A DNA stretch of 64,000 bases, taken from Parcubacteria group bacterium Gr01-1014_31 (GTDB lineage: Bacteria > Patescibacteriota > Patescibacteriia > Buchananbacterales > GWA2-38-13). Below the pieces are notes generated by a model that saw nothing but the letters and a program-made list of their open reading frames with translations, did not search any database and was not told where the DNA came from. The translations under genes were made by a program, and so were the position numbers. Positions 11,578 to 40,612 of this stretch are shown in pieces; within the stretch, counting starts at the first letter, position 1; every line of letters begins with the position of its first letter. The stretch lies in contig VMFR01000002.1 in the NCBI GenBank assembly GCA_007376135.1, forward strand, positions 221,870 through 285,869, read 5' to 3'.

Positions 11578-11605
11578 GACAATCCAAACTCCGAAGGAGG
11601 AATCC

Positions 11606-12502: not shown

Positions 12503-12565
12503 GCGTTCTGTGCCACACCGCACCTTCCCACATACAAAACCCCCAGGGCAACCACCCCGGGGTTC

Positions 12566-12652
12566 TTTTTTATTTCCCGCCGCCCCGTCATTCGCCGCCG
12601 CTGAACAATTTTCAACCGTGCCGTTGATTGACCCTCCCAGGCGGCTGGGGTA
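12566..12652. repeat. partial copy C of the 408-640 / 13851-14068 repeat element, embedded in hisG terminator region
   Basis: TTCTTTTTTATTTCCCGCC... and ...GGCTGGGGTAGC ends shared with copies A/B. Confidence 0.45.
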
Positions 12653-12720
12653 GCATGACTGAGCACGTTGTGTTCGTTGACATTTTGTTCCGGTCCATAA
12701 GTTCTTTTTTGAGGTGTTCT

Positions 12721-13776
12721 ATGTCTTCAGCTGATTCTCGGCCGTTGGAAAGTTCCTCCGCCACCGGCAGTGCTCCCGGCGCGCCAACTTTGGCTGCGGC
12801 AGCCAAGCAAAGGGTCAGGGATCTGGTCGGGGTAACGAAGCAGTTCGCTCGCGAGCATCGCGGGCGGAGCTGGTTTCACCTGTGGTCGACGCTCGGCGTG
12901 ATGAGCTGCGCCTTCTTGGCAACCGCGCTGCCGTTCCCGTGGCTGGTGCGCGCCGGGTTCAGCGTCCTTGCTGCCCTGCTCCTGGTGCGGATGTTCGTCA
13001 TCTACCATGACCATAGCCACCGTACCATCCTGCGCGGTTCCCGACTGGTCAAGGTCATCATGTACGGGTTCGGGGTTCTCACCCTCAACCCGCCCAGCGC
13101 CTGGAAGTCCTCGCACGACTACCACCACAAGCACAACGCCAAAAATTTTGGCGTTAACATCGGATCATTTCCTCTCCTGACGACGCACGGCTATGCGCGG
13201 GCGACTAAGTGGGAGCGCTTCGCCTACGCCCTGGCCAGGCACCCGCTGACCATCGCCTGCGCCTACCTGACGGTCTTTCTCTATTCAATGTCGCTGAAGC
13301 CTCTGATCGTGGAACGAGCGAGCCGCCGTGACTGTGGCATCGCGGTCGCCTTGCATCTAGGCATCATCACGTTGCTTGCCGTGCTGGCGCCGTACGTCCT
13401 GCTCTTCACGTTCATGGTCCCCATGTGGATCGCTTCAGCTCTGGGAGCGTACCTGTTCTACTCGCAACACAATTTTCCCGGCGTGCAGCTGCGAGATCGC
13501 CCGGCGTGGGATTTCGTGTTCGCGGCGCTGTATTCCTCGAGCTACACGGCCATGGGGCCGGTCATGCAGTGGTTCACGGGCAACATCGGGTACCACCACG
13601 TGCACCACCTGAATGCGCACATCCCGTTCTACCGCCTACCCGAGGCAATGCGGGCAATTCGCGAGCTGCAAACGCCCTCTACCATTCGGCTCAACGTGAG
13701 CGACGTCTGCCGGTGTTTCCGGCTCAAGCTTTGGGACCCAGAGAAAGACATGATGGTATCGTTCGACGGCACCTAA
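12721..13776 (+). CDS. membrane fatty acid desaturase
   Basis: three His boxes HDHSH, HDYHHKH, HHVHH; TM segments; RBS GAGG; ORF track start 12628 trimmed. Confidence 0.85.
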   Translation: MSSADSRPLESSSATGSAPGAPTLAAAAKQRVRDLVGVTKQFAREHRGRSWFHLWSTLGVMSCAFLATALPFPWLVRAGFSVLAALLLVRMFVIYHDHSHRTILRGSRLVKVIMYGFGVLTLNPPSAWKSSHDYHHKHNAKNFGVNIGSFPLLTTHGYARATKWERFAYALARHPLTIACAYLTVFLYSMSLKPLIVERASRRDCGIAVALHLGIITLLAVLAPYVLLFTFMVPMWIASALGAYLFYSQHNFPGVQLRDRPAWDFVFAALYSSSYTAMGPVMQWFTGNIGYHHVHHLNAHIPFYRLPEAMRAIRELQTPSTIRLNVSDVCRCFRLKLWDPEKDMMVSFDGT

Positions 13777-13850
13777 CCAAAAAGGCATACCCATAGGTAT
13801 GCCCCGACCAACTCCAGTCCACCGCCCCCCTGCCAGACGGCAGTGGGGCA

Positions 13851-14068
13851 TTTTTTTATTTTCCCGCCATCGCAGCAAGGGAGTTTGCGACCGCCGGCGA
13901 GATATGCGGGAAAATAACCCCGCACCAATTTTGCCGTACAATCCACCTCGTGTTTTGAACTATGGTAGCATTGTCCCCCCAGTCGCGAAGCGCGCGTGCG
14001 AATAGCACTCTCCATTATGGGCGCAGCGCTTCGCCGGGACGTGAGTTCCAAAATTGGGTGCTGGGGTT
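13851..14068. repeat. intergenic repeat element copy B
   Basis: see 408..640; preceded by hairpin plus T-run terminator (CTGCC-agac-GGCAG..T7) of desaturase gene. Confidence 0.6.
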
Positions 14069-14073
14069 GCTAC

Positions 14074-14277
14074 CTACATAATGCGACAATCCGGGCAGAC
14101 GCACGGCGTTCCTTGGGCGACGGACTTTAGTGAGCACTCGGGGCACTGCTCCATCGGCTGGAGTGGCTTTCCCTGCAGTTCGCAATTCTTCGCCGCGCAG
14201 GAAATCGCGTCTTGTTCGTGCTGTTCCAGCGTCGCAATGCCGTGGCAGGAGCCCTGGCAGACAAAGACTTTGCCCAT
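14074..14277 (-). CDS. small Cys-rich protein (10 Cys/67 aa), putative metal-binding
   Basis: MGKVFVCQGSCHG...CAAKNCELQG...CPECS...CVCPDC; no recognised family; upstream palindrome cluster. Confidence 0.5.
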   Translation of the reverse strand: MGKVFVCQGSCHGIATLEQHEQDAISCAAKNCELQGKPLQPMEQCPECSLKSVAQGTPCVCPDCRIM

Positions 14278-14282
14278 AGTGG

Positions 14283-14395
14283 ATGTGCTAGGTACTAAGT
14301 GCTAAGCACTAAGTTGATGGTTTATAAGACCAGTAGTATACGACTGGTACTTAGTACGTAGCACTTTGAACTTAGCACTGGTTTAGAATTCCATT
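14283..14395. promoter_or_regulatory. palindrome-dense regulatory region (AGTGC-taa-GCACT; ACCAGTaGTATACgACTGGT; GTACTTAGTAC)
   Basis: seen directly in the 110-nt gap between the MBL gene stop and the Cys-rich gene start. Confidence 0.5.
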
Positions 14396-15033
14396 GGTTG
14401 GCCCAGTTCCAGCGGCTGGAAGCGGATGCCGGCCTGAGGAAGGAATGCGGTCAGCAAGCGGTGCTGCGGCAGCGCGGTTTTGAGCATGCCATCGTGGACG
14501 GGGAATGCTAGGCGCGGCTTGACGGCCATGGCGTAGGCGACGGCTTCCTTTATTTTCATCCACGGTCCCGCGATGGGCAGCGCGAGGATGCGCACGCCGG
14601 TCGGCGGCGGGGTAAAGGCGTCGCCCGGGTAGAACAGTTCCCCCGCGACGAGAATGCCGATGTTGTCCACCCGGTTCCAGTTCCCGTAAATTTCGGCATG
14701 GAGTTTCCCAACCCCGATGATGGGAACGTTTTTGACGGTAACGGTCTGACCGTCCTGCAAGGTGTCGGCAGCCAGGTCGGCCGCGGCCATCTGGTTTTTA
14801 ACCGCCTCCGTCGTGAAGACCGGAATGCCCGGGTTCTTTTCCAATACGGCTGAGAGCGCGGGCAGGTGGAAGTGGTCCTGGTGTTCGTGGGTGATGACCA
14901 CGGCGTCCAGCGGCGGCAGTTTCGCGGGGTCGGCTCCCATACCCGCGAACTCATGGTTGCCGGGGTCGGTCAGGATGCGCACGCCGTTGATCTCGATGAC
15001 CAGGCAGCAGTGGCCGAATTTGGTGACGTGCAT
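14383..15033 (-). CDS. MBL-fold metallo-hydrolase
   Basis: ITHEHQDH (HxHxDH) plus downstream H/D ligands. Confidence 0.85.
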   Translation of the reverse strand: MHVTKFGHCCLVIEINGVRILTDPGNHEFAGMGADPAKLPPLDAVVITHEHQDHFHLPALSAVLEKNPGIPVFTTEAVKNQMAAADLAADTLQDGQTVTVKNVPIIGVGKLHAEIYGNWNRVDNIGILVAGELFYPGDAFTPPPTGVRILALPIAGPWMKIKEAVAYAMAVKPRLAFPVHDGMLKTALPQHRLLTAFLPQAGIRFQPLELGQPMEF

Positions 15034-15122
15034 AGTAAGGCGCGTTATCTCTTAGGGCTCAACGAGCTGCATCTACCATTTGTGTCGCCGAATCATGGAA
15101 CAGAAAGCAAAGAGTAAAATTA

Positions 15123-15758
15123 TTATTGGCCTTGGATCCATTTTCCGATGTGATCCAGTGCCGCCGATGGGAACTGGTGGCCCAGGCCAGGGACAATGAT
15201 GATGTCTGGGGTGATGCGATAGTCGGCGAGGCGGCGGTTAGCATCGTCGATCTGCCGGAAATCGTCGCCTCGAGCCCAAGTATCGAGTTCGCCGACCACG
15301 GTGAGGATTTTCAGTTCCAGCGTTTGCGGCTGACTAAATATACCGAGCGGGTCGCAAAATGCGCCGAGGGGAATGGCGCCAGCAAAGAGGTCGGGATTTT
15401 GCATCGCGAATTCACAGGCGTTGTAACCACCGTTGGAAAATCCGGTGATAAAAATTTTGGCGGCAGGGTACTCATTTTTGAGCCGTTGGGCATCGATTGG
15501 TACGCTTTGTTCACTCCAGGTTTCTGGGACAATAATCCTAATGCCGAATTGTTTCTCCAGTGGCCGCCATGCGGTGCGCGTGCCTGCCGCTTCTCCCGGC
15601 TCGCCGCCGGTGGTCAGCACGAAAAGGATGGGTGCGTTCGGCGGCAGCGGATTTTTTCGGAGATTCGGAGGGCGCAGAGGTCCGCGCTGGATTGTCAGGG
15701 CGGCGACGACCGAGGCCGCAACGATAATAATGAAAAGCAGAGGAATGAAGCGGCGCAT
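15123..15758 (-). CDS. alpha/beta hydrolase (esterase/phospholipase-carboxylesterase family), N-terminal TM anchor
   Basis: GFSNGG (GxSxG nucleophile elbow); N-term hydrophobic segment. Confidence 0.75.
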   Translation of the reverse strand: MRRFIPLLFIIIVAASVVAALTIQRGPLRPPNLRKNPLPPNAPILFVLTTGGEPGEAAGTRTAWRPLEKQFGIRIIVPETWSEQSVPIDAQRLKNEYPAAKIFITGFSNGGYNACEFAMQNPDLFAGAIPLGAFCDPLGIFSQPQTLELKILTVVGELDTWARGDDFRQIDDANRRLADYRITPDIIIVPGLGHQFPSAALDHIGKWIQGQ

Positions 15759-15760
15759 AG

Positions 15761-16270
15761 TCAGAATTTCTCGGGTAGCGGGAGCTCGCGCGGCAGGTGA
15801 TTTGCGGCGGCGAAAAATCTTATCAGGTCGTCGTGCGGGAGCGCCAGAGTGGCGCGATTGTCATTGGGGTGGAATTGGTTGTAGGCATCGGCGGCCAGCG
15901 CGGCATCCAGAATGACCTGCACCACATTGTTTCGGTCATGCAGCACGCCGAACGGGCTGACCGATCCGGGGGTCAATCCCAGTAGCTCCCGCAGTTCGTC
16001 CGCTGTCGCGAATGACAGCCGTCCGCAGTTAAGAGTTTTTGCCAGCGCGCCGAGGTCCAGACGTTTGCGGCAGGGCGAAAGCAGTAAAAAGAATTTTTTT
16101 GCGGCGGTTTTCACCAATAGGCATTTGCTGGGAGTGCCGGGGATATCGCCGATGACCGTTTCGGCCTCGGCGCAGGTGTACACCGCGGGATGGTCGAAGC
16201 GTTGGTACCGCACGCCCAATTGATCCAACCGCGCGGTGACGGCCGCGGCGGCGTCAGGAACGTTGGGCAT
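15761..16270 (-). CDS. YbaK/ProX-type aminoacyl-tRNA deacylase domain protein
   Basis: KCLLVKT...LSPFGV motifs of YbaK family; start trimmed to MPNVPD (ORF track 15761..16585 runs into the upstream gene). Confidence 0.7.
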   Translation of the reverse strand: MPNVPDAAAAVTARLDQLGVRYQRFDHPAVYTCAEAETVIGDIPGTPSKCLLVKTAAKKFFLLLSPCRKRLDLGALAKTLNCGRLSFATADELRELLGLTPGSVSPFGVLHDRNNVVQVILDAALAADAYNQFHPNDNRATLALPHDDLIRFFAAANHLPRELPLPEKF

Positions 16271-22736: not shown

Positions 22737-24131
22737 TTAGCGGGAAGGACTGCGGTGGCGGGCCCGGGACCCTTCCGTCTGCCAGACCCGGCGGCCGCGG
22801 CGCGCGTTGCCGTGCGGACGGCTCAGGGTGGAACGGCCGTAGGTTCCGCCGTTCCCGGGGCGCTCTTCCGACCGTCGGGCGTGGCGCGGGGAGCCATAGC
22901 GGCTGCTGCCATGGCCGGCATCGGCGAATGGCGCACGCCGGGCCGGCGCGAAGCGGGGACGCGCGGGCATCGGACGCGCGGGCGCGAGTTCCGGCGGGGA
23001 CGACAGCGTCAAGGTGGTTCTGGTCAGTCGTTCGATATCGCGCACCTGGCCGCGCTGGTCGGGAGCGACGAATGTCACGGCGCGGCCGGTTTTCCCGGCG
23101 CGGGCCGTACGGCCGATGCGGTGCACGTAGTCCTCGGGGTCGTCGGGGATGTCGAAGTTGACCACCAGCTCGATGTCCTGCACGTCAATGCCCCGGGCGG
23201 CAATGTCGGTGGCGACCAAGATGCGGTACTTGCCGGATTTGAATCCCTCCATGGCCGCGCGGCGCTGGCTGAGCGAACGGTTGGAGTGCAGCTCGGTCAC
23301 CTGGTGGCCCATGCCGCCGATCGCGCGGCAGATGCGCTTGGCGCCGTGCTTGGTGCGGGAGAACACCAGGATGGTGCCGTGGTAGCGGGCAACCAAGGTG
23401 TCCAGCAGCCGCAGCTTGTCCTCTTTTTTGACCATAAAGAATTCCTGCTCCACATTCTTGACCAAGGTTCCCGCGCGCGCCACCTCGATCTGCAGGGGGA
23501 GTTGCATGAATTGCGTCGCGAGCTGCACGATCTCTTTGGGCATGGTGGCGGAGAACAACATGGTCTGGCGTTCGCGCGGCAGGGCCTGTAGCACCCGCTT
23601 GATCTGGGGTGCAAAGCCCATGTCCAGCATCCGGTCTGCCTCATCCAGCACCACGATCGTGTGGAGCCCAAGGTCAATGCTCTTCTGCTGGACGTGGTCC
23701 AGCAGCCGGCCAGGGGTGGCCACCACGACGTGCGGCTTGTTGCGCAGGGCCTGCAGCTGCGGTCCCATCGGCGCGCCGCCGATGAGCACCGACGTGCGCA
23801 ACCCCAACGCGCTGCCGATCTTTCGCAGCACTTCGTCCACCTGCAGCGCCAGCTCGCGGGTCGGCAACAGGACCAGGCCGCGCCCCTTGGATTGACCCAG
23901 GCGCTGGATCATCGGCACGCCGAACGCCAAGGTTTTGCCGGTGCCCGTCTGGGCGATACCAATGATGTCCTTGCCGCTGATGGCGACCGGGATTGCCTGG
24001 TGCTGGATGGGCGTGGGTGTGGTGAATCCTTGGCGGGTCAGGGCGGCGAGGAAATTTTCCGCGATACCCAGTCCCGCGAAACTGGTCGGGGTTGGGAGAT
24101 TAGTTGTGGCTTGGGGATGTTTGGCATGCAT
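22737..24131 (-). CDS. DEAD-box ATP-dependent RNA helicase with Arg-rich C-terminal tail
   Basis: Q-motif, GTGKT, DEAD, SAT, HRIGRTARAG. Confidence 0.9.
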   Translation of the reverse strand: MHAKHPQATTNLPTPTSFAGLGIAENFLAALTRQGFTTPTPIQHQAIPVAISGKDIIGIAQTGTGKTLAFGVPMIQRLGQSKGRGLVLLPTRELALQVDEVLRKIGSALGLRTSVLIGGAPMGPQLQALRNKPHVVVATPGRLLDHVQQKSIDLGLHTIVVLDEADRMLDMGFAPQIKRVLQALPRERQTMLFSATMPKEIVQLATQFMQLPLQIEVARAGTLVKNVEQEFFMVKKEDKLRLLDTLVARYHGTILVFSRTKHGAKRICRAIGGMGHQVTELHSNRSLSQRRAAMEGFKSGKYRILVATDIAARGIDVQDIELVVNFDIPDDPEDYVHRIGRTARAGKTGRAVTFVAPDQRGQVRDIERLTRTTLTLSSPPELAPARPMPARPRFAPARRAPFADAGHGSSRYGSPRHARRSEERPGNGGTYGRSTLSRPHGNARRGRRVWQTEGSRARHRSPSR

Positions 24132-24238
24132 AGTTCAGGGGGAAATACAGCAAATTGAGTATACCATATGCTTCCGGTTTCCAAACCGAAAAACAAAAAC
24201 ACCCCCGAGGCGGGGTGTTTTTGCCGAAGTCTGGGGAA

Positions 24239-24844
24239 CTACCGGGTAAAGGTGAAACTTTTTACCATTTCCTCAAAGATGGCCGCGTCCGCGGGGGCGC
24301 CGTCGGCGGAAGTAAAGATGAGGCGGTAGAGCTGGCTGCCTTTGGTGAACTGGTATTCAATGACCACGTAGCCGTTGCGCACGCCCGCATAGCGGTTCGC
24401 GGTTGAGCCGCCAACTGTGGTGCTGGTTTTTTCCAGGTCGACGGTGGCATCGGCGATGTCGGCGGGCGTTTTACCGGAGACTTCAATGACCAGCATCCCA
24501 AGGTACTCGCTGCCCAGCCCCGGCAAGGGATTGCGGTCGGCCATGAAGTAGTCGGTCACCGCCGGGTTGCTCGCAGCGATGTCGTTTTTCATCAGGTGTT
24601 GCCAGTACCATTTTTCCGGCCGGCGGATGCGGTACCCCATCGCGCCGTTCTCGTAATCGGCATAGGTGACGGGCGCGCCGCTGGCCGGGGAACTTGATGG
24701 CGTTGCGCTCACGGTCGGCGATGGCAGCGGTGTGGGTGCCGTGTTGATGTTGCCGTTCTCAATAACGGCGGGTTTCGGCGTACAGCCGGCGAGGAACAAC
24801 AGAGCAGTAATGATTATACCGAATCGAACGATGGGTGAATTCAT
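24239..24844 (-). CDS. hypothetical lipoprotein
   Basis: signal peptide with lipobox LAGC; Pro/Thr/Ser-rich linker. Confidence 0.6.
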   Translation of the reverse strand: MNSPIVRFGIIITALLFLAGCTPKPAVIENGNINTAPTPLPSPTVSATPSSSPASGAPVTYADYENGAMGYRIRRPEKWYWQHLMKNDIAASNPAVTDYFMADRNPLPGLGSEYLGMLVIEVSGKTPADIADATVDLEKTSTTVGGSTANRYAGVRNGYVVIEYQFTKGSQLYRLIFTSADGAPADAAIFEEMVKSFTFTR

Positions 24845-24851
24845 AAGACTA

Positions 24852-25478
24852 TTATTTTATCCAAAATCCAGAAACTTCAGCCAAGAATAATGTGGGTATG
24901 CTCATTAATGTTAGTAGCCAGAGAAAGAAAATGAATTTTAGTATTTTGTAATCTTTAAATTTTAATATTTGGGGTATTGATTCCTTATTGAGTATTGCCT
25001 GTTCAATTTCATCTCCTTCGATAAGCAATTGTTCTGCTCTGGCTGCATAGTCATAATATGATTTCCGGGTTGCAGCTATATGCCTAATTTTTGCGAGTAA
25101 AGTTTTTTGGTGATAATTTTTCAAAGTTTGAGATATGTCTCTGTATTTGATGAATGTCTCAATGGTGAATAGCAAGAAAGATAATGCGACTATGCGTGCC
25201 AATATTTGTATAAACCCTGAGGAGAATTCATCTTTCTTTGCGAATACAATTGTTAGCAGGACTCCGACGAAAGATATGATGGTAAGCTTTATTTTAAGTA
25301 AATAATCATCGAAACTTTTGGAATATTCCATTAAGGTTTTATAGATTTCTGTTTTTTCAATAAATTCTTGTTTTGTTATTTTCTGCCGTTCATCATCGCT
25401 AGCGGCTTCCATATAAATATTTGCTATACAATCAATCTTTTGGCCACCCCACCGGGTTCCCACATTGTCCCGCCTCAC
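24852..25478 (-). CDS. low-GC (about 30% GC) hypothetical 3-TM membrane protein, likely horizontally acquired
   Basis: strong compositional anomaly; Lys/Ile/Phe-rich; 2 TM + cytoplasmic coiled region + C-terminal TM; probable start at MEAASDD (about 25412). Confidence 0.55.
   Translation of the reverse strand: MRRDNVGTRWGGQKIDCIANIYMEAASDDERQKITKQEFIEKTEIYKTLMEYSKSFDDYLLKIKLTIISFVGVLLTIVFAKKDEFSSGFIQILARIVALSFLLFTIETFIKYRDISQTLKNYHQKTLLAKIRHIAATRKSYYDYAARAEQLLIEGDEIEQAILNKESIPQILKFKDYKILKFIFFLWLLTLMSIPTLFLAEVSGFWIK
25445..25466 (-). pseudogene. tRNA-Glu 3'-half fragment (decayed duplicate with 13-nt internal deletion)
   Basis: GCCCCACCGGG..TTCCCACATTG collinear with the intact tRNA at 25579-25650. 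Confidence 0.5.
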
Positions 25479-25561
25479 GGCGGGATGCTCATAATTGCTG
25501 CGAAATTTATTTCACTTCGTTCATAAATTTCGGCAATTATGGCAAAAGCTCGTCCGTATTG

Positions 25562-25668
25562 ATTCTGACAAATTTTTTTAGCCCCACCGGGAATCGAACC
25601 CGGGTTCCCACATTGAAAGCGTGGTGTCCTAGCCACTAGACGATGGGGCCAAAAAAATTTGTCAGAAT
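25562..25668. repeat. perfect 18-bp inverted repeat flanking the tRNA (ATTCTGACAAATTTTTTT ... AAAAAAATTTGTCAGAAT)
   Basis: seen directly; tRNA lies exactly in the loop. Confidence 0.8.
25579..25650 (-). tRNA. tRNA-Glu (anticodon UUC)
   Basis: cloverleaf reconstructed by hand: acceptor GGCCCCA/TGGGGCT, T-arm CCGGGTTCGATTCCCGG, anticodon loop CTTTCAA; discriminator A, CCA not encoded. Confidence 0.85.
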
Positions 25669-25911
25669 ATTAATTTGAGAAATGCCAGTTTGTGGAAGTT
25701 GAGGCCGCGGGCCGAAATCCCGCTATCTTGCGGGATGTGGTGTCTGCCCCGTCGGACCTGTTCCGTCGAATGGCGGGATGACGGGGTCCTAGCCACTACC
25801 CCGCCGCTGGCGGGGCAGGGACGATTCTGCCATAACACGCGTAGCGGGGAGTCCCGCTACCTGGCCTATGATACGGGAGAACGGGTGAATCGTCAATGCA
25901 ACGCTGCGCGC

Positions 25912-26661
25912 TCAATCCCGGCGCGTGAGAACGAAATTGCGGGTGCCAAACCACTGCGCCATGCGGTCGGTGTAGGTAACCCCGGCGCTATTGAGGGAAA
26001 GTTCGTAGGCGACCCACTGGCGCAGGTATTCGTCCTGTCGTTCTTTCGGCACAGCCTTGGACAACTCTTTCAGCGCGTAGAGATTGAAGAATTTTTCTTC
26101 CTGGATGGCGAGGCCGGCATCATTGAGCCAGGTTCGGAAATCGTTCTCGCGGACGAATGCTTGGTAGTCGGCTTCGTTGCCGCGCATCGCCCGCCAACGC
26201 CTGCGCCAGTCGCGGAAGCGTTCGCGCCACGGATAGTTGCCCTGCAGCCGTGCCAGGAAATGGCCGGCGTCGTAGTTGAGGTACATCACCGTGCCGGGCT
26301 GCAGCCAGCGGGCGCAGGTGCGCAGGTACCGCGGGCGCTGGTAGACGTGTTCCAGCACGCTGAACGAGACCACGACATCGAACCGTTCGTTAGCTGTAGG
26401 CGCGACATCGTAGACCGGCGTGGTGCGGATGTCGGCGTTGCAGCCCCTGAGAGCGGTTTTCGCGCGCGCGCAGGCGGCCGCATCGGGGTCCAGGCCGACG
26501 TAGCGCACTTGCGGGAACGCGCGCAGCAAAAGCGCGAAGTGGAGGCCGTCCCCGCAGCCCAGGTCCGCGATGCTCAGTCGCCCGCCGCGCTGGGTAATGA
26601 GCTGGGCGATACGGTCGAGGCAGTAGAGTTTTGCGGCGTTGCCGCCGGTCCAAATATCCAT
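25912..26661 (-). CDS. class I SAM-dependent methyltransferase
   Basis: motif I IADLGCGDG; Methyltransf_11/23-like post-I motifs. Confidence 0.8.
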   Translation of the reverse strand: MDIWTGGNAAKLYCLDRIAQLITQRGGRLSIADLGCGDGLHFALLLRAFPQVRYVGLDPDAAACARAKTALRGCNADIRTTPVYDVAPTANERFDVVVSFSVLEHVYQRPRYLRTCARWLQPGTVMYLNYDAGHFLARLQGNYPWRERFRDWRRRWRAMRGNEADYQAFVRENDFRTWLNDAGLAIQEEKFFNLYALKELSKAVPKERQDEYLRQWVAYELSLNSAGVTYTDRMAQWFGTRNFVLTRRD

Positions 26662-31652: not shown

Positions 31653-32104
31653 CGCTCGGACATCACGTTGTCGGACGGGCGGAATTTCACCAGCACACCA
31701 GGAATTTCAAGTACCTGCGCTCTCACTTGAGCTACCGTCGACAACCGTTTTTTACCGGGCAAACTCTGCAGACAAGGAAGTCACCCAAAGGCGCAGTCGA
31801 GCGGGCGCCAGACATGTCCTTACGGATGACTCCCCGCTTGTCGTGCCTGCAGAATACTGGACCGTGGGTGGAAAGGGGGTGGCTCCGACGAGGTCGGAGC
31901 GAACGTGAAAAGGACACGTTGCACACCTACGGCCCAAGATTCTACAGGCACCGCATTTCCTCCTAGGCACACAAGGCGCCCGAGGGTTGTCTACAGAGTT
32001 TGCGGGGTAAAAAAATATTTGCCTTTGGCAAAGGTCGAACGTAACTGTCAACAATAGCACAGGCGGAAAACCTTGTCAAGTAGGAGAGCTAAAAAATGCA
32101 AAAA

Positions 32105-32767: not shown

Positions 32768-32832
32768 CCCTCCCTTCTTTCCGTCCCCTCGTTCACCGCC
32801 CCCGCCATCACGGTTGGGGGCTTGTTTTAGGG

Positions 32833-32861
32833 TTGACATTTTTCAATATATTTGGTATATA
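32833..32861 (+). promoter_or_regulatory. consensus sigma70 promoter TTGACA-17-TATATA (second TTGACA at about 32893)
   Basis: read directly; 90 nt upstream of the 577-aa gene. Confidence 0.65.
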
Positions 32862-32953
32862 CAATTGCTGCGATTCCGCGTTCTCGGACCGCAGTGCCCT
32901 TTGACAATCAATGGTTGGTTGTCGCAAAAGTCAAAACATAAGGAGTACATGAA

Positions 32954-34687
32954 TTGGGAAAACATGAATACGAACCTGCAGTCGACGTGAAGCGTTTGCT
33001 CAGCGGCGTCGACGACCGCAGACGGGAAAAGTTGTGCAATCGGCTCTTCCGGTATGTTCAGGACAGTCGGAGCACGGCTGACCTCGAGGGTTGCGCGGTA
33101 GGCGTCGTTGAACCCTTTGAGCGGGCGTACTGGAACGATTTTTCACGTTCGGTCTTGGAAAACACTTCCCACATCATTGCACAAAATGGGGGGAAAGTAA
33201 TTGAACTTTCTCCTCCGCCATTGTCGCGGCCAGAAGCAGTTGAGACTGAGCGACGGTTGCGGGAGCGAATTTTCGGAATGGCGAAGCCGATTCTCCACCG
33301 AATTTATGATGACCTGTATGCGCGTAAGCGTTTAGAGGTTTTCCTCCGTTCCACCTACCTCGACATGGAGTCGCCCAGTTTCGAAGCCAAAGCATTGCTC
33401 GGAAACTCCGAGCGAATGCTGACCTATCTCAGGGGAGGGTTTCCAGCGGAAGAAATTCGGAAAGCCGCCCGGCATACGTTTATCCTGGAGTTCTACCGCT
33501 ACACCGGGCTCACGCTGGAGCGATCGTTGGGGCTTGCTCTCTTTTTGCTCGGACAATTCGAGATGCTTTCTCGTCAGCTCGTCGGCGTGAATTCTCCCCC
33601 GGATGCCCACTCCCGTGCTTCCATTCCCTGGCGGATTCTTCTCGGGAGTCTGGGGAGTCCGGCAGATCAGCGCGCTCCCCAGCGAGAGTGGTTCTCTCGG
33701 CTTCTCCATTCGGTGGAAGGGAATCCTGTGGTTGAGGAAGTTATCGACTCGATCTACAACCTCGCAACGTGTTCTCCTGACGGAGAAACGGTGGTGACCC
33801 ACAGTCAACCAGAGATGACACAACAACACTCGGCCGAGCAACTTGAGAAGCTGGTTGACGCGGAGTACCACGACAGCGAAGTTCTGCAGTGCAACACCCC
33901 AATTTTCCTCACCTCCGAAGAAGAGGCGATTTTTGCCCGTCTACGGCAATCCGGCCGGGCAGAATTCGAGCGGAATTTCGAGCAGGGTCGTGCCGCCCTG
34001 AGTTGGTTCTCCGCGCACGATGAGTTTCGGGGGGAACTTGAGTGGAAGCGGCGGGAGATCGTCGAGCGGCAGCATGGAAGCCGCCCCGGCATCCGGTTTC
34101 TCCGGGATAACGGTGTTGACCATTTCGAGGTCGATGTGCAGCCGTTGTGGCACATCGGGGTGCGATCCGTCGCCTTTCATCCGGAGGGGCGCGTGTTTCA
34201 CGATCCAGCGTTGCGGATCGCAATACGCAAAGAAACCCCTCACCTCATCGTCTTCCCGGCTTGCTTGGAGAATCTCCGTTTGGAGTTGGTCGATGTTCAT
34301 ATGCTGTATAACCTACAGTACGATGATTTGGACCAGCTGCGGCGTTTCCTGGAGTTTGTGATCATCAACATGATGCACCGCATCATGGTCCAGAGAGTGG
34401 AACTCCGATCCCGAGTCGTCAACGGTGTAGTGGTGCCACGCCCCACGGAGGTACGGAGGTTCGAAGTTGCGAGCCATACCCGAGGCCTACCGTCCGGTTC
34501 TCAGGCGAGTGAAGAAGCCAAGGCGTTGGCGTTCACGGAGAAGGGTATCATCCTCAATTCGGGGGAGACGTACGTTTCCGCTTACCCCAAGGGGGGTAAA
34601 GATGGGTCCGAGTTGGTCTACGACTGGCCGATCGAGCCGTGGGCGGTCTACACTGAGGATGATCTCTACGAAGATGGAGGTGGCTAA
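32954..34687 (+). CDS. hypothetical protein (577 aa), no recognisable domain; first gene of candidate system
   Basis: TTG start 8 nt after SD AAGGAG; mixed composition throughout; acidic C-terminus. Confidence 0.6.
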   Translation: MGKHEYEPAVDVKRLLSGVDDRRREKLCNRLFRYVQDSRSTADLEGCAVGVVEPFERAYWNDFSRSVLENTSHIIAQNGGKVIELSPPPLSRPEAVETERRLRERIFGMAKPILHRIYDDLYARKRLEVFLRSTYLDMESPSFEAKALLGNSERMLTYLRGGFPAEEIRKAARHTFILEFYRYTGLTLERSLGLALFLLGQFEMLSRQLVGVNSPPDAHSRASIPWRILLGSLGSPADQRAPQREWFSRLLHSVEGNPVVEEVIDSIYNLATCSPDGETVVTHSQPEMTQQHSAEQLEKLVDAEYHDSEVLQCNTPIFLTSEEEAIFARLRQSGRAEFERNFEQGRAALSWFSAHDEFRGELEWKRREIVERQHGSRPGIRFLRDNGVDHFEVDVQPLWHIGVRSVAFHPEGRVFHDPALRIAIRKETPHLIVFPACLENLRLELVDVHMLYNLQYDDLDQLRRFLEFVIINMMHRIMVQRVELRSRVVNGVVVPRPTEVRRFEVASHTRGLPSGSQASEEAKALAFTEKGIILNSGETYVSAYPKGGKDGSELVYDWPIEPWAVYTEDDLYEDGGG

Positions 34688-35067
34688 TGGAATTTGACCA
34701 CTTCGATCTTCGCGAGCTCTACCGGGAGTGGCGTGAACAACGGCCAACATTGACGAGCCGGCTGCAAAGGAGTTTTCCTGCATGGGTTTTCGAGGTGCGT
34801 TCTCAGTACCGCGAGCTCGCCCGCGCGCATCCGTCGCTTTTCCACGCCGCCTGCCATCAAGCCGAGGAAGCGGAAAGAGGCGTCGCTACACCCCCTGACC
34901 ACGGTATCCGTCAGGCTGTCCTGCAACGCCACGCTGTTGAGCTTGCACAGTGTTGGCTGCTGGCGCGCGATCAATACCCCACGTTTGGTGCATTTCTCGA
35001 GCGGGTGCTCCAGGAATGCCAAACCGAGCGCGCGCTGCAGCGATGGCTCAAGCACCTTCCGAGGTAA
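34687..35067 (+). CDS. hypothetical protein (126 aa), translationally coupled (TAATG) to upstream gene
   Basis: ORF track; start overlaps stop. Confidence 0.55.
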   Translation: MEFDHFDLRELYREWREQRPTLTSRLQRSFPAWVFEVRSQYRELARAHPSLFHAACHQAEEAERGVATPPDHGIRQAVLQRHAVELAQCWLLARDQYPTFGAFLERVLQECQTERALQRWLKHLPR

Positions 35068-35098
35068 GTCGGTCCAGAGATTGGGCCGACTTTTTTTA
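35067..35098 (+). terminator. stem-loop AGTCGG..CCGACT + T7
   Basis: seen directly after stop of 126-aa gene. Confidence 0.6.
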
Positions 35099-35185
35099 TT
35101 GACATACAGCGATTTTTATGGTAGAGATGGTTTCTTGTTTCTTTGATAACTGAATAATTGGCCCTTTAGTTTATGGAGGAAAGTC

Positions 35186-38100
35186 GTGAGAAAGATGAGC
35201 AAGAAAGAGAAAATCGCCCTCATTATGAGCATCGCCGATGTGGCGTTGCGAAACCAGTCGCTGCGGTGGATGCTCAAAGCCGGTGAAATCACCGAGGATG
35301 ATCTCGCGGTAGTTGATGCCCAAGAAGCGGCACGCCAGTACCCCGAGCTCCGGGAACGTTTTAAGACCGATCCCGGCCTGCGGGTACTGCTGGACGTTTT
35401 CCGCGACTACCCGATCTACTTGGCCCGTGCGTTGGTTCAGGCGGCGCCGGACGTGTTCTACTCGTACGGTTTTGCGTACCGAAACTCAGTCAAGTTGCGC
35501 GCCGACCTCGGCACAATCGGAGTTGACCCGATCCGTGGCTCCGGCGGTTCGGGAGCTGCGGTGTACCTTGAGCGTCTTCCCAAGGAAGTTCGACAAGACT
35601 TGGTCGCACTGCTCCAGGAATTCTACTTTCATGAGTGGCTCAAGGATTTCTCCGACAGCCCCGAAGATGCGCTGGCCCTGCTCGATTTGGCTCGCGGGGA
35701 AGCCACTAATGATTTGGCGCGCCAGGCGTTGTCCGGACTTCATGATGAGTGTCAGCAGGTGTTCCAGGGAGTTTTCCCCGACTTTGTCGAGGAATTCCAT
35801 GCATCCCGGTTTCCATCTTTCCACGTTCGTTGGTGGATCCACCATATCAGCGAGGTTCCCCGCGTACTCAATATGGGAGATACCGGGACCCAAAAGACCG
35901 CCTTTGCCGCGGTCGGGCTTCGTCACTATGGCTGCCAACGGGCGCTGATCGTCTGTCCGACCCGCGCGAGTCTCCAATGGCAACGCGAGATCCAGGGCTA
36001 TCTGCGAACGCCCGCCGACCGCGTGCTGTTGGTTGATAGTCCGCGGATGATCGCGGAAGCGGCCGTCGCCACGCCGTGGTACACCATCATCGGGTACAGT
36101 ACGCTGATCGCGCGCGGGGTGGTAGACCAACTGAAGGCCATCCCCTTTGATGGGTTGGTTTTGGATGAGTGCCACTACTGCAATCACGATTCGCATCGGG
36201 CGATAGCTGCCAGTCAGCTCGTCAACGAGCTTCCGCTCCGGCGATTTTTAGCGCTGTCCGCTACTCCCTGGGAGAACCATCCGCGAGAGATGGCAGCGCT
36301 CGCTACCATGCTGCGGCCGACCACGTTCGCTTCGCCAGAGGTCTTTCGTCAGTCGCGGCCGGAGCACCCTCGTTTTCTTCGTGAACTTTTCCGCGCGCAA
36401 GTGCTTCAAGTGGAGCTGCGCGAGCTGACTCGTCTCCCATCGATCACCCCGAGCCCTTGGGAGGATCTGTTCGGCGCCGAACTGATTGAACCGACGCCGG
36501 AGCAGCGCGCTGTGTACGATTTTGTACGCGAGCAAGAGGACGACGAGCTCCCCGCGACCGAAAAGATGAAACGGCTGCTGTGGGCGGCGATCCATCCGCA
36601 CAAGCTGAAGCCCCTTTACGCGTGGCCAGCTGCGCTGGTATCGCACTTCGATCATCCGGAGCTTTCGGCAAAGCTCGCCTGGTTGAAAAACCGAATCACC
36701 CTTGAGCTTGCTCGAGGCGCCAAGGTGGTCGTCGGCACTGGCATTTACGTCGCCGGCATTACCTGTCCCAACGACAACGGTGACGAGCAGTGGGTCGGCA
36801 ATCAATTGCGTCAGTGGTTTGGCGAGCATCGCGTGCTCATCCTCGACGGGAGTGTGCTGAAGAGTGCCGGCCATAGCGGTTTAGTCAAGCGCGAACGACT
36901 CATCGAACAATGGCGCAACGATCCGGAAACCAGGATTCTCCTCGTTTCGATACCGGCCTGTCCCGATGCGCTGAACCTCAGCGTTCCCAAGTTGTCTGGG
37001 ATTACCCGTCTTTTCGTCACCACCCTGTCTTATCCCTGGAAGCCGTGGAAGCAATTCCAAGGTCGTTTCTGGAGGCCAGGGCTCGGCGTGGAGATGGAGT
37101 ACCGGGTGCCGGTGCTTCGCGGGACAATCGACCACAGTCTACTACGGATGCTCCGCAGGAAGTGGGAGTTGCAGCAGATGTTCCGTGCCTTGGTACCGTT
37201 GACTGAAGAGGAATTCGCTCGACTTGATCAGGGCGAGTATCTCCGCTGGTTGGCGGATGAGCTGCGTTCCGACTACCAACGCGTTATCTTCATCGGTAAC
37301 AATTTCCGTGGTCAGGGAGAAGCTCATGCGATTGCCATGTTCGAGGCTGAGTATGCGTCGACTACAACCGCAGAGGCATATGCAAGCGCATTTCTTGCCT
37401 GCCATGACTGCGCCACTTCTGGGCATATCGCTCGGTTCATGCAACCAGCGATCGAGGCGATGCAACAGCAAGGAGGGCTTGTGGATTCCACCGGTGTCAC
37501 CATACTCGATGCTGGGTGTGGCCCACTCACCCTCGAGCGGCGTTTGGCGCAGCCAGTCTATGGTGTGGACATGAATCGCCATATGATTGAACTGGCCAAG
37601 CCAAAGTCGCCGTGTGGCGGCTGCAATGTCCACGTCGGTTTCCTCAGCCAGCTGCCAGCAGAATGGACCGGGCGATTCGAGTTGACGGTTGCCTCGCTCG
37701 TGCTCGACTGGACTTCGATCGAGAGCGAAGTCGGGAGAGAACCGGATCGTTTGACGGTGCTGCGGGAGTTAGTTCGCGTTACACATCCAGTCGCTGGCCA
37801 CGTCTGGATAACCGTGACGCATCGGTCGCTCACCTCGGAGCTGTTTCAAGGCTGGGTTGCCGCCCTGGAACAGCAGGGTTTCGAGATCGTACGTGATTTT
37901 ACGGCGTTGTTCCGATCAAAGGACCACGAACCTGGTCAGGTACCATTCGAATTCTGGTCGATCTGTTTTTCACCCAAGGGTAAACAGCTTACCTTGGTCG
38001 ATCCTCAAGCACTTCGTTTCACTTTCGAACAATCGCGCACGAAGAAGAAGCGATCTGCCGATGGAGACGACGATCAGCTGCGAAGCCCAAAAGTGCAACG

Positions 38101-38332
38101 CATGGTCAAGTACCAGAAATTCGAGGCCGTACATCGGTCAGGCGAAATCGTCCAGCAGTCGGATGCGATCGAGCGGGCCGTCTCGGGTGAGGTGGTTCGT
38201 TTGATGCGCAACCCTGATTTGCGGGGGTGGAAACCTCACCGCAAGCCAATCCTTGCCTGGGAACATCTGTGGCGCTCTTATGTGAAGCGTCCGGAGGTTG
38301 CCGAAGAACTCAGGCGGCGCGGGTTCCTGTGA
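35186..38332 (+). CDS. fusion protein: N-terminal unknown domain (about 230 aa) + SNF2-family helicase (SNF2_N + Helicase_C) + class I SAM methyltransferase (Methyltransf_11-like) + basic C-terminal tail
   Basis: motif I GDTGTQKT, Ia ALIVCPTRASLQW, II LVLDECHY (DExH), III LALSATPWEN, V RILLVSIPACPDALNL, VI QFQGRFWRPGLG; MTase motif I ILDAGCGPLT, post-I VYGVDMN, Methyltransf_11 tail; GTG start with SD GGAGG. Confidence 0.8.
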   Translation: MRKMSKKEKIALIMSIADVALRNQSLRWMLKAGEITEDDLAVVDAQEAARQYPELRERFKTDPGLRVLLDVFRDYPIYLARALVQAAPDVFYSYGFAYRNSVKLRADLGTIGVDPIRGSGGSGAAVYLERLPKEVRQDLVALLQEFYFHEWLKDFSDSPEDALALLDLARGEATNDLARQALSGLHDECQQVFQGVFPDFVEEFHASRFPSFHVRWWIHHISEVPRVLNMGDTGTQKTAFAAVGLRHYGCQRALIVCPTRASLQWQREIQGYLRTPADRVLLVDSPRMIAEAAVATPWYTIIGYSTLIARGVVDQLKAIPFDGLVLDECHYCNHDSHRAIAASQLVNELPLRRFLALSATPWENHPREMAALATMLRPTTFASPEVFRQSRPEHPRFLRELFRAQVLQVELRELTRLPSITPSPWEDLFGAELIEPTPEQRAVYDFVREQEDDELPATEKMKRLLWAAIHPHKLKPLYAWPAALVSHFDHPELSAKLAWLKNRITLELARGAKVVVGTGIYVAGITCPNDNGDEQWVGNQLRQWFGEHRVLILDGSVLKSAGHSGLVKRERLIEQWRNDPETRILLVSIPACPDALNLSVPKLSGITRLFVTTLSYPWKPWKQFQGRFWRPGLGVEMEYRVPVLRGTIDHSLLRMLRRKWELQQMFRALVPLTEEEFARLDQGEYLRWLADELRSDYQRVIFIGNNFRGQGEAHAIAMFEAEYASTTTAEAYASAFLACHDCATSGHIARFMQPAIEAMQQQGGLVDSTGVTILDAGCGPLTLERRLAQPVYGVDMNRHMIELAKPKSPCGGCNVHVGFLSQLPAEWTGRFELTVASLVLDWTSIESEVGREPDRLTVLRELVRVTHPVAGHVWITVTHRSLTSELFQGWVAALEQQGFEIVRDFTALFRSKDHEPGQVPFEFWSICFSPKGKQLTLVDPQALRFTFEQSRTKKKRSADGDDDQLRSPKVQRMVKYQKFEAVHRSGEIVQQSDAIERAVSGEVVRLMRNPDLRGWKPHRKPILAWEHLWRSYVKRPEVAEELRRRGFL

Positions 38333-38408
38333 TTTTCCGTGAGCTGGGCCGGTAAATCATCGCCGGTCCAGCCTTTCTCACTCAACACAACCTTCTGGAG
38401 GTACGCTC

Positions 38409-39002
38409 ATGGATGAACCGTTTTGGAGGCAGCAACCCCAGACCGTGGCACAGGCCATGCTGGGTAAGCTGCTCGTGGTCGGCGAGACGGAAGGCTGGGT
38501 GCTGCGCACCGAAGGATACCCTCGGGCGAAGAATGCCGCCGGCATTTACAAGCCGATGCTGGAAATGGCGCCTGGAGATGTCTACTGTCCGCGGACCCGG
38601 AATTCGATCCTCCTGCTGATCGTAACGCAGGATGGGGTCGACATCGGTGGCTGCGTCCTCATACGCGCTGCCGAGATTGGTGGTACGACGTTTGACGGTC
38701 CGGGCAAGGTCACCGAGGCTTTCGGGGTCACCGTGCCGCGGGTTTCCGGTACTGCTGAAATCGGGGAGGACGACGATACGGTGCTCGTCCACCTCGGGAC
38801 ATCTCGCGCTAAGGACCAGCCGAAGCCGTCGCGGCCGCGCTTGCGTGCCTATGCGGCCATCGGATGGGAAACCGTCAGGCGCAACATGCCTCGCATCGCA
38901 AAATGCTTCTTGAGTCAGCCCTTCGGTCGGTTCGAGGATTTTCTCGAACGGATTCTCGAGGGCTGTACCAGTGAGGTGGAACTGTTGAAGCGTCTCCGTT
39001 GA
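38409..39002 (+). CDS. mpg: 3-methyladenine DNA glycosylase (Mpg/AAG family)
   Basis: AQAMLGKLLVV..ETEGW..RTEGY..AAGIYKP..MAPGDVYCP..NSILLLIV..GGCVLIRAAE matches AAG-family core; SD GGAGG. Confidence 0.75.
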   Translation: MDEPFWRQQPQTVAQAMLGKLLVVGETEGWVLRTEGYPRAKNAAGIYKPMLEMAPGDVYCPRTRNSILLLIVTQDGVDIGGCVLIRAAEIGGTTFDGPGKVTEAFGVTVPRVSGTAEIGEDDDTVLVHLGTSRAKDQPKPSRPRLRAYAAIGWETVRRNMPRIAKCFLSQPFGRFEDFLERILEGCTSEVELLKRLR

Positions 39003-39078
39003 ACTTCGTTCTCTCTACTCCTGCGTCTGCAGGTGCCCCCAGCTGTCCAAGGATGGTTTGGGGGCTTTTTTTAAGTTT

Positions 39079-39122
39079 TCCATGGTACTATTCGCGCGAA
39101 TAGTACCATGGACTTTTTTATT
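39079..39122 (+). terminator. perfect 34-bp palindrome (TCCATGGTACTATTCGCG|CGCGAATAGTACCATGGA) + T6 between convergent genes
   Basis: seen directly. Confidence 0.75.
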
Positions 39123-39624
39123 CCCCCAGCCGTTCCACCAGTTTGAGTGCGGCTTTGCCGGTCGTCAAATCGACGAGCGCGAAGGTCGCTTTGTACCACA
39201 TGCCAGCCAGGGTGCCAGGATTGAGCACGGTGCAGCTGCTGATTTTTTCTTCCCACGGCTTGTGGGTGTGGCCGTGAAAGACATAGCGGTACTTGCCCGT
39301 TGCGGCCAGTTCCTTGGCTTCCTGCGGATAGTGGACGAACGCCAGCTGCACGCCGCCGATGACGGTTTCCCCAACATCGCCGTGCAGGGTGACATGCGGG
39401 AATTGCCGGCCCATGGCGGCAAAGCCGTCGCGGTCCACGTCGCAGTTGCCGTAAACGGCGTGGATTTGTTTGGGAAATCCGTGCGCCAGCAGCGCCAAGG
39501 TTTCAGGCGTGGTAATGTCGCCGCAGTGGATGAGCGCGTCAATGGGCAGCGCGGAAAAATAACGCAAGGCCAACTGCAAATTGGCCTCGTTGTCGTGGGT
39601 GTCGGAAATAATTGCAATTATCAT
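39118..39624 (-). CDS. metallophosphoesterase (YfcE/MJ0936 family)
   Basis: ISDTHDN, GD, GNCD, GHTH motifs. Confidence 0.85.
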   Translation of the reverse strand: MIIAIISDTHDNEANLQLALRYFSALPIDALIHCGDITTPETLALLAHGFPKQIHAVYGNCDVDRDGFAAMGRQFPHVTLHGDVGETVIGGVQLAFVHYPQEAKELAATGKYRYVFHGHTHKPWEEKISSCTVLNPGTLAGMWYKATFALVDLTTGKAALKLVERLGE

Positions 39625-39683: not shown

Positions 39684-40538
39684 CTAAGAAAGGTACCGCC
39701 AAAGTCGCGCCCCGTGTCCAAATTTAGAGCATTGAGCCGTTCCTCGTCGGCTAATTTCGCTAACTCGGCCGTTGAGTGCGGGATGCGCAACGAGCGCTGC
39801 GAAGCCGGCCTTTCCGATCTTCCCCTCCCCCAGGTGCGCGTGGCGGTCCACATGCGCCCCGAAGTCGGCCTGCGAGTCATTAGCGTGGATGAGCACGAGC
39901 CGGTCCAGACCGATGGTGCGGTCAAATTTTTTCAAAGTTGCGCTCACTGCCCCAGCAGTCCGCAGGTCGTAGCCCGCCGTGAATGCGTGGCAGGTATCCA
40001 GGCAGACGCCGATCTTCCCGCGCCAGGCTGCGTTCATCTTTTCGACGTCCTTGATGTAGGCGGCAATTTCTTCAAAGGAATCACCCAAGACTGCGCCCGA
40101 ACCGGCGGCGAGCTCAATTAAAAAACGGGTCGTACCCGTATACCCGTCCAGCATTTTTATCAGCCCTTTCACCACCATCTGATGGGCAGCGGCGGCATCC
40201 ACGTCCTTGGCGCTGCCCAGATGGGTCATCAGCGCGGCGGCTCCAAGCTTTGACGCGCGTTCCAATTCTTCGCGGATGATCGCGATGGTGCCGTGGCGGA
40301 TGCGAATGTTCGCCGACGCGAAGTTGACGTAGTAGGGAGTGTGCACGTAGCAGGCCGCCTGCGCATACTTTCGCATTGCCGCGTGGAATTGCGAGAGTAT
40401 TTCGGGTGTCAGCTCCGGCGCTTTGCCGCCGCGCGGCGAACGGATGAACATTTGAAACACTTCGCAGCCGACCGCGGCCGCGTTGGCCGGTGCATTGAAC
40501 ACCCCGCCAGCGATGGAAACGTGGAGACCGAAACGCAT
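39684..40538 (-). CDS. nfo: endonuclease IV (AP endonuclease family 2)
   Basis: TIM-barrel xylose-isomerase-like motifs; start trimmed to MRFGLHVSIAGG (ORF track upstream extension is translation of the TTGAC repeat array). Confidence 0.85.
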   Translation of the reverse strand: MRFGLHVSIAGGVFNAPANAAAVGCEVFQMFIRSPRGGKAPELTPEILSQFHAAMRKYAQAACYVHTPYYVNFASANIRIRHGTIAIIREELERASKLGAAALMTHLGSAKDVDAAAAHQMVVKGLIKMLDGYTGTTRFLIELAAGSGAVLGDSFEEIAAYIKDVEKMNAAWRGKIGVCLDTCHAFTAGYDLRTAGAVSATLKKFDRTIGLDRLVLIHANDSQADFGAHVDRHAHLGEGKIGKAGFAALVAHPALNGRVSEISRRGTAQCSKFGHGARLWRYLS

Positions 40539-40549
40539 AGATGAGACAA

Positions 40550-40612
40550 TTGACTTTTGACCATTGACCGTTGACTTTTTCCGACGGTCAAATGTCAATG
40601 GTCAACGGTTAA
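40550..40612. promoter_or_regulatory. palindromic heptad array: 4x TTGAC(nn) ... centre ... 4x (nn)GTCAA/GTTAA, immediately upstream of nfo
   Basis: TTGACttTTGACcaTTGACcgTTGACtttttccgacgGTCAAatGTCAAtgGTCAAcgGTTAA. Confidence 0.6.

Follow-up and report, generated by a model that had tools for sequence, protein, structure and literature searches.

A candidate undescribed gene cassette with a SNF2-methyltransferase fusion, an AAG-like partner and a shared tail domain in a Parcubacteria genome

Closest described systems and layout of the cassette

DISARM is an accessory cassette of several genes, among them those for a SNF2-family ATPase and a methyltransferase, and in the Dpd system a base-flipping or base-handling enzyme works with a SNF2-like motor on DNA. 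Likenesses to both are seen in a cassette of four genes, here called A, B, C and D, which lies in a 64,000-nucleotide (nt) stretch of the genome of Parcubacteria group bacterium Gr01-1014_31 (contig VMFR01000002.1; the whole of this stretch is referred to as the window). The source is a metagenome-assembled genome (MAG) of the candidate phyla radiation (CPR), in which C is annotated as a hypothetical protein, and the deposited C of this organism is identical to that of the window except for the choice of start codon. To our knowledge, the CPR/Patescibacteria have tiny genomes in which few defence or epigenetic systems have been recognised, and their accessory genes are for the most part uncharacterised. 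The genes and the domains of their products (lengths in amino acids, aa) are as follows.

32954-34687, plus strand: gene A, 577 aa, TTG start 8 nt past AAGGAG; helical N-domain at about residues 1-373 and alpha/beta C-domain at about 380-577
34687-35067, plus strand: gene B, 126 aa, translationally coupled to A via TAATG
34867-35058, plus strand: tail domain of B, about residues 61-124, preceded by a small N-terminal head
35186-38332, plus strand: gene C, 1048 aa, GTG start after GGAGG
35186-35875, plus strand: N-terminal domain of C, residues 1-230, all-helical and family-specific, ending in an invariant HVRWW motif
35858-37225, plus strand: SNF2-type ATPase of C, about residues 225-680, both RecA lobes
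37478-37975, plus strand: class I S-adenosylmethionine (SAM)-dependent methyltransferase of C, about residues 765-930, small-molecule/rRNA type
37976-38332, plus strand: C-terminal extension of C, residues 931-1048, partly basic, with no known domain
38409-39002, plus strand: gene D, 197 aa; AAG/MPG-like head at about residues 1-130, followed by a linker and a tail domain at about 140-197 (nt 38826-38999)

No description of this gene combination was found in the literature searched, and no match that would place the cassette in a described system was obtained with PADLOC or NCBIfam, which agrees with the original prediction that the system is undescribed. Matches to DrmD, DpdE, ZorD and mad2 (the last at E 1.2e-5) do not go beyond the generic core of the SNF2 or methyltransferase domain, and all score far under the cut-offs. 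For DISARM, the DrmD model NF038317 gave 22.9 bits for C against a cut-off of 610, and DrmD in PADLOC matched C at E 0.013-0.044 over about 70-145 residues, with no Drm match in A, B or D. The cassette also differs from DISARM in that ATPase and methyltransferase are fused in one polypeptide in C, that this methyltransferase is of the Methyltransf_11-type class I rather than an N6A or C5 DNA methyltransferase, and that DrmA, DrmB (DUF1998) and DrmC (PLD) are missing. The best PADLOC match was to DpdE (32 bits) and covers about 150 residues of the ATPase N-lobe of C; in contrast to Dpd, the cassette has no TGT-like DpdA, no DpdB or DpdC and no preQ0 genes. The BREX proteins PglZ, BrxC and PglX were matched by none of the four proteins in PADLOC, C having no NPPY-type motif, and no Zorya partner genes were found among the cassette proteins by the same means.

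At the level of single proteins, the closest solved relatives of the C motor are the Sulfolobus Rad54-like protein (PDB 1z63), INO80, ISWI and Fft3. Unlike Rad54-like remodellers, C has a Tyr or Gln in its P-loop at the position where a Gly usually precedes the Lys, and it carries a new N-domain and a fused methyltransferase. The head of D resembles AAG/MPG (PF02245; human AAG 1EWN/1F4R), with a match above the gathering score and the Y127 and Y157 aromatics kept, and D differs from these enzymes in bearing an added, putative docking domain at its C-terminus. The motor-methyltransferase fusion, the AAG-derived partner, the putative docking domain and the folds without relatives are four features which are not combined in any described system.

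The C-D pair and the shared tail domain

The cassette was compared with about 25 related loci, and hidden Markov models (HMMs) of A, B, C and D were scanned over every locus. Of the distinct loci, 18 have both a full-length C and DNA that can be read downstream of it, and in all 18 gene D follows C directly and on the same strand. The flanking genes vary in every locus and include those for ribosomal protein L19, ATP synthase, MetK, sugar-nucleotide enzymes and Cas12a-Cas1-Cas2; the gene order recurs in unrelated genomic contexts. In two independent lineages (L019/L024 and L025) a short C ends after the ATPase, without the methyltransferase, and is not accompanied by D, the place of which is taken by a zinc-finger protein with a tail domain. 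The methyltransferase domain and D therefore co-vary, and this co-variation is the strongest functional link found. Neither it nor the domain shared by B and D (see below) formed part of the original prediction. Another locus (L020, 2524-5183) has a C homologue split in two open reading frames (ORFs) with HMM positions 323-541 missing, while D and a small tail protein are kept; it is probably a pseudogene or an assembly error.

The SNF2 helicase that had been predicted in the 1048-aa protein was recovered, as residues 246-391 match SNF2-rel_dom (PF00176; E 1.4e-12, 47.8 bits against a gathering score of 24.9), and the same region matches phrog_62 (E 1.3e-26). Pfam Helicase_C (PF00271) gave no match in C at E<=1; the C-terminal RecA lobe is seen only by profile alignment and by motifs V and VI, and is therefore divergent. 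The C-family profile aligns to both lobes of SsoRad54 (1z63; E 2.4e-11, residues 250-605), and it also aligns with INO80, ISWI and Fft3. Conservation was scored in 31 homologues of C at 39-51% identity, in which ATPase motifs I (G231/T233/K237), II (D327, E328), III (SATP), V and VI (R627, R630) are invariant or nearly so, with an unusual P-loop of the form GDTGT(Y/Q)KT.

Further along the protein, residues 774-868 match Methyltransf_11 (PF08241; E 4.9e-6, 27.5 bits against a gathering score of 21.2), and Methyltransf_25 and 31 match this domain as well. The SAM-binding residues D775, G777, G779, D795 and N797 are invariant in the 31 homologues, methyltransferase motif I thus not being degenerate, and the amino-methyltransferase motif [DNS]PP[YFWH] occurs in none of the 31, in keeping with the earlier assignment to a non-amino class I type. 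The nearest PDB sequences are 3sm3, ToxA (8rdl) and 4nec. Relatives within Methyltransf_11 include rRNA m1G and protein lysine methyltransferases. The N-domain of C has a confidently predicted fold but no structural relatives, and no relationship between the N-domains of A and C was detected with hhalign.

The label of 3-methyladenine DNA glycosylase originally given to D has to be softened. Residues 5-108 do match Pur_DNA_glyco (PF02245; E 6.8e-9, 35.8 bits against a gathering score of 27), as do 9 of 16 D orthologues (best E 3.6e-11), with the match in the window copy spanning profile positions 2-130 of 181, or about two thirds of the fold. The NCBIfam glycosylase models, however, remain below their cut-offs for this copy (TIGR00567 at 28.9 bits against 116; PRK00802 models at 17-22 against 182-249). 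The family was aligned to human AAG, the numbering of which was checked against PDB chains. At the column of the catalytic residue E125, the 16 orthologues have Glu in five, Gln in five, Lys in two, and Arg, Thr, Ser and Val in one each; the window copy retains the Glu as E35. The equivalents of Y127 and Y157 are aromatic in all 16, the GPG(K/R) segment is retained, as mostly is R182, and the pocket is otherwise remodelled: the H136 loop is deleted throughout, the position of Y159 is Pro in 13 of 16, and the intercalating Tyr162 has become Arg in 11 of 16. A separate match of the D profile to uL10 in the PDB (E 0.0085) was judged spurious.

With the catalytic Glu in 5 of 16 orthologues and the His136 loop lost in all, excision is therefore unlikely to be the conserved function of D, and the modify-and-excise logic suggested earlier is weakened. 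The E125Q variant of human AAG (PDB 1EWN) is reportedly dead in catalysis while still binding lesion DNA, and many D proteins would thus be natural binders of the E125Q kind. Judged from these residues, D is more likely to have been conserved for recognising a base than for excising it, though the window copy may also excise.

B and D are homologous over their C-terminal ~55-60 residues, and a BLAST comparison of B with D in locus L003 gave E 1e-8. An HMM of this tail (consensus gIG..L.r.MP.I.k.y....F..FLn.lL..C.tE.eLr..L) matches every B and every full-size D, and among the sampled loci it matches only genes adjoining C; within the 64-kb window the domain is confined to B and D, and nothing was found in A or C at E<=10. 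Beside C in other loci, the domain also forms the N-terminus of a 617-aa helix-turn-helix (HTH)-repeat protein (HTH_29/HTH_17), of a 447-aa protein with six INT_rpt units, and of DUF4379 treble-clef zinc-finger arrays of 3-7 units. It is probably a docking domain by which exchangeable nucleic-acid-binding heads are attached to the motor. Since the short C is still accompanied by a tail protein, docking probably takes place on the N-domain or the ATPase part of C.

A distant relative of C gives further support to DNA-targeting heads. P0034, an uncharacterised metagenomic protein of 1540 aa, is collinear with C residues 209-913 (24% identity over 750 columns, pairwise E 8e-24), from the SNF2 region through the linker into Methyltransf_11, and its N-terminus (residues 1-560) is a tandem array of eight 68-aa HTH repeats of the type also found in the tail protein in L015, here fused to the SNF2-methyltransferase itself. 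In P0034 the targeting repeats are thus part of the polypeptide and not recruited by a tail domain, and its P-loop is the canonical GLGKS and its Helicase_C domain can be detected, neither of which holds for C. The ~68-aa repeats occur in about 6-8 tandem units in P0034 and in L015 (7393-9243), with the consensus PEGW...HPEWF...HYSPEL, and may form an extended, sequence-reading DNA-binding array. The head of B was also compared with a single repeat of this P0034/L015 type, and no match was obtained.

Neither A nor B has a match in Pfam, NCBIfam, PHROGs or PADLOC, and no housekeeping family was found for either. Sequence profiles of A, B and D gave no meaningful match in the PDB. The fold of A is predicted with confidence, and its family has no structural match, a Foldseek search against BFVD returning nothing at E<=0.001. 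A word-index homology search started from the single sequence, and then from a 4-sequence alignment, found only A itself, while exhaustive phmmer over 1.84 billion proteins recovered 77 A cluster representatives at E<=1e-3, each a standalone protein of about 470-640 aa. A has a conserved C-terminal motif, VRPHxRRLPxGxxASxxA...GxxLPxGxTFV. Public gene calls for the start of A differ (577 aa as against 469 aa in ENA, P0001); homologues align from residue ~6 on, which supports the long, TTG-initiated form.

Full-length A adjoins B and C in 7 independent loci and in four arrangements (A-B-C-D; B-A-C-D; divergent B-A and C-D; A-C-D-B-A), and each full-length A near a C gene directly adjoins a B gene. 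B-type proteins also follow D in loci without A (L002 and L006). Around two sampled distant members of the A family (L029-31 and L032), about 5-8 kb of DNA contain neither B nor C nor D, the A gene in L029 adjoining an HTH_17 and Fic pair and a type I restriction-modification system. As members of the A family occur without B, C and D, A is an optional accessory outside the core, and the original grouping of the four genes as one system does not strictly hold for A. Proteins of 621 aa encoded upstream of C in L006 and L024 had been considered as homologues of A and were ruled out as unrelated. A second family of 458-470 aa, encoded divergently upstream of C in L013 (4389-5792, minus strand) and L017 (2612-3985 and 4039-5448, both minus strand), resembles A only in the ~50-aa C-terminal motif (VRPHxRRLPxGxxAS...TFV), which may be a separate small functional module.

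The C family is rare: 5.8 billion proteins contain about 32 full-length relatives or clusters, and 185,579 species genomes contain 11 loci. Relatives with a named source come from Patescibacteria-type MAGs (Sungbacteria, Uhrbacteria) or from an unnamed 'bacterium'; genome and metagenome scans add MAG loci labelled Andersenbacteria, Patescibacteria and Saccharibacteria, and several automated 'Gammaproteobacteria' labels which are unverified. This sporadic distribution indicates an accessory function. Only generic SNF2 matches, and no family members, were found among phage GenBank records, PLSDB plasmids and IMG/VR, and an origin from phages or other mobile elements is therefore unsupported.

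Genes of note stand near the module in some loci, as anecdotal context for a defence role. HicB/NYN is found in L008 and MazE in L009. In L002, from a Candidatus Sungbacteria MAG, C is directly preceded by a SAM synthetase gene, and a Cas12a-like gene (called as 856 aa), Cas1 and Cas2 follow directly after C-D-B at 11453-15909, the B-type gene overlapping the called cas12 start.

Proposed function and alternative explanations

The reading preferred here, tentatively and at slightly less than an even chance, is that of an accessory, modular nucleic-acid-targeting machine with a C-D core and tail-recruited adaptors, occurring sporadically in CPR/Patescibacteria. Gene linkage, domain content and residue conservation were observed directly in the loci compared; from them we infer that the substrate is DNA, what kind of mark is written, that the adaptors dock to C, and what the cassette does for the cell. 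In the proposed scheme, C would be recruited to DNA and would then be driven along it by ATP, and its methyltransferase would write a non-canonical methyl mark. Since the domain is neither an amino- nor a C5-DNA methyltransferase, a ring-nitrogen methylpurine would be the most plausible mark. The AAG-derived pocket of D would flip out and recognise the methylated base, and D copies with the catalytic Glu, such as that of the window, may also excise it. Partner proteins would be recruited through the ~60-aa tail domain, which most likely would bind the N-domain or the ATPase part of C. A and B form a separate transcription unit, and A would act as a sensor, scaffold or regulator which B perhaps links to the motor. 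The role is probably the marking or attacking of DNA in genetic conflict (defence or exclusion), or epigenetic control, and this is the least supported step of the scheme.

In its most specific form the scheme would be a motor-coupled writer and reader, with a 3-methyladenine, 7-methylguanine or 1-methyladenine type of mark (m3A/m7G/m1A), an AAG-derived reader that excises in some lineages, and DNA-binding adaptors that dock; this form is considered unlikely. A defence role for the cassette is plausible. As a claim of the original prediction it was not supported, with no nuclease or other effector found, an ordinary chromosomal context, and no relatives on phages or plasmids.

Several observations weigh against the preferred reading. 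No nuclease or toxin effector was found in the cassette, its neighbourhood in this window is of housekeeping type, and a strong terminator splits A-B from C-D. A-family genes exist without the module, and A has no conserved catalytic constellation, D389 alone being nearly invariant. The nearest sequence relatives of the C methyltransferase are small-molecule methyltransferases. The D-family profile reaches no AAG chain in the PDB by sequence, and the fold assignment therefore rests on the Pfam and TIGR profiles. Finally, the loci were seeded from C homologues, so that the frequency of tail or D-like genes away from C is not measurable in this set.

Some of these points would be expected if A-B and C-D were unrelated neighbours, with an adjacency of no functional meaning. 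The terminator and separate promoter-like site between B and C, the A-family genes which stand alone in L029-L032 and the many C-D loci without A are all in line with this. It is nevertheless held to be improbable, given the tail domain common to B and D, the recurrence of A and B beside C in the seven independent loci and four arrangements, and the B gene directly beside every full-length A near C.

An equally improbable explanation is housekeeping or stress DNA repair, in which a RapA- or Mfd-like translocase would bring an AAG-type glycosylase to alkylated bases, and the methyltransferase domain would either sense SAM or modify a protein. D belongs to the AAG family and has its catalytic Glu in the window, endonuclease IV and metallophosphoesterase genes lie just downstream, the chromosomal context is ordinary and there is no toxic effector. 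The rarity of the family, on the other hand, fits poorly with a core repair function, the catalytic Glu is gone in 11 of 16 D orthologues with the pocket remodelled, and the other loci have no endonuclease IV gene beside the module. Interchangeable DNA-binding adaptors suit targeting better than damage scanning, and the invariance of the SAM-binding residues also speaks against this explanation.

The target could also be other than DNA, with C remodelling an RNA-protein complex or RNA polymerase and methylating RNA or protein, and D binding RNA via a formyltransferase-C-like fold. A methyltransferase of small-molecule, rRNA or protein type would suit such a function, and C has weak NCBIfam matches to RapA and to a pilus-regulating Snf2 protein. 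SNF2 ATPases are, however, double-strand DNA translocases, the HTH, zinc-finger and integrase-repeat heads are typical DNA binders, and the nearest family of D is that of DNA glycosylases, which together make this explanation a little less probable than either of the two preceding ones. It is hardly credible that DISARM, BREX, Dpd, Zorya or MADS includes this cassette as a divergent member. The weak matches to DpdE, DrmD, ZorD and mad2 do not extend beyond the generic SNF2 N-lobe or methyltransferase core, the partner genes of these systems have no counterpart in A, B or D, C lacks an amino-methyltransferase motif, and tests of membership contradict such an assignment.

If the methyltransferase acts on DNA, the preferred reading would imply a new type of DNA mark, the reuse of the AAG fold as its reader, and targeting modules of HTH and zinc-finger repeats that look programmable. 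Should the most specific form of the scheme be true, bacteria would have their first known 'alkylation-type' DNA mark that is written by a dedicated enzyme and read by a protein of its own, and CPR organisms would follow an immune or epigenetic logic that is new. Even under a mundane role, the C-D linkage and the tail network yield testable hypotheses for about 100 'hypothetical' proteins.

Transcription signals and genomic setting

The four ORFs, the TAATG overlap, in which the TAA stop of A and the ATG of B share one base, and the terminator after the 126-aa gene are all present in the window as originally described. The signals found around the genes are listed below.

32798-32828, plus strand: intrinsic terminator of the gene upstream of A, GCCCCC...GGGGGC followed by a T-run, read from the sequence
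32833-32861, plus strand: promoter-like site TTGACA-N17-TATATA, upstream of A
35066-35092, plus strand: intrinsic terminator 3' of B, 12-pair stem followed by a T-run
35099-35127, plus strand: weak promoter-like site TTGACA (35099-35104)-N17-TAGAGA, upstream of C, read from the sequence
39035-39072, plus strand: first terminator of a tandem pair 3' of D, GCCCCC...GGGGGC and T7
39079-39112, plus strand: second terminator after D, 34-nt palindrome with perfectly complementary 17-nt arms and a T-run

The site upstream of A, which had been called a textbook promoter, is present, and TTGACA-N17-TATAWW has one match in the 64-kb window compared with 0.01 expected from shuffles; it is not listed by a strict consensus promoter scanner because its -10 hexamer ends in A. 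The second promoter proposed before the 1048-aa protein corresponds to the TTGACA-N17-TAGAGA site, with a TG one base before the -10 hexamer, and can only be called promoter-like; it too is unlisted by the scanner. The terminators after B and after D therefore define two transcription units, A-B and C-D. The second terminator after D probably also serves the convergent gene at 39118-39624.

Similar terminators (GCCCCC...GGTTGGGGGCTT(G/T)TTTTA) at 32798-32839 and 39035-39083 bracket the four-gene cassette almost exactly, and they include a 26-nt direct repeat (32814-32839 and 39058-39083; 21 of 26 positions identical, 6244 nt apart). This pair could be a duplicated insertion site or merely convergent terminator sequence. 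At 0.56-0.58, the G+C content of the cassette region is lower than that of the 2-kb blocks right next to it, about 0.60-0.62.

Outside the cassette, the window has the content of an ordinary chromosome, with VanW-like, purple-acid-phosphatase/fn3, endonuclease IV, metallophosphoesterase and TrmB regulator genes, and with the further housekeeping genes for trigger factor, H+-PPase, NusA and tRNA-Glu. Just downstream of D and convergent with it are the genes for endonuclease IV, an apurinic/apyrimidinic (AP) endonuclease (39684-40598, minus strand), and a Metallophos_2 phosphoesterase (39118-39624, minus strand). Their position beside D is suggestive of base-excision chemistry, a pairing that is not repeated in other loci.

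Upstream of the cassette, a standalone class I methyltransferase of 249 aa (Methyltransf_23/11/12) is encoded at 25912-26661 on the minus strand, at a distance of about 6 kb, and a comparable standalone methyltransferase is found near the module in L006. The G+C content falls to 0.49 at 24001-26000, compared with about 0.62 elsewhere in the window; this segment holds the tRNA-Glu gene (25578-25651, minus strand) and two ORFs (24239-24844 and 24852-25478, minus strand), both without a Pfam family, and may be a small island or integration site. A 28-nt inverted repeat (31748-31775 and 31987-32014), 89% complementary and with 211 nt between its arms, sits in a poorly coding stretch between the VanW-like gene and a small PF1765-like gene.

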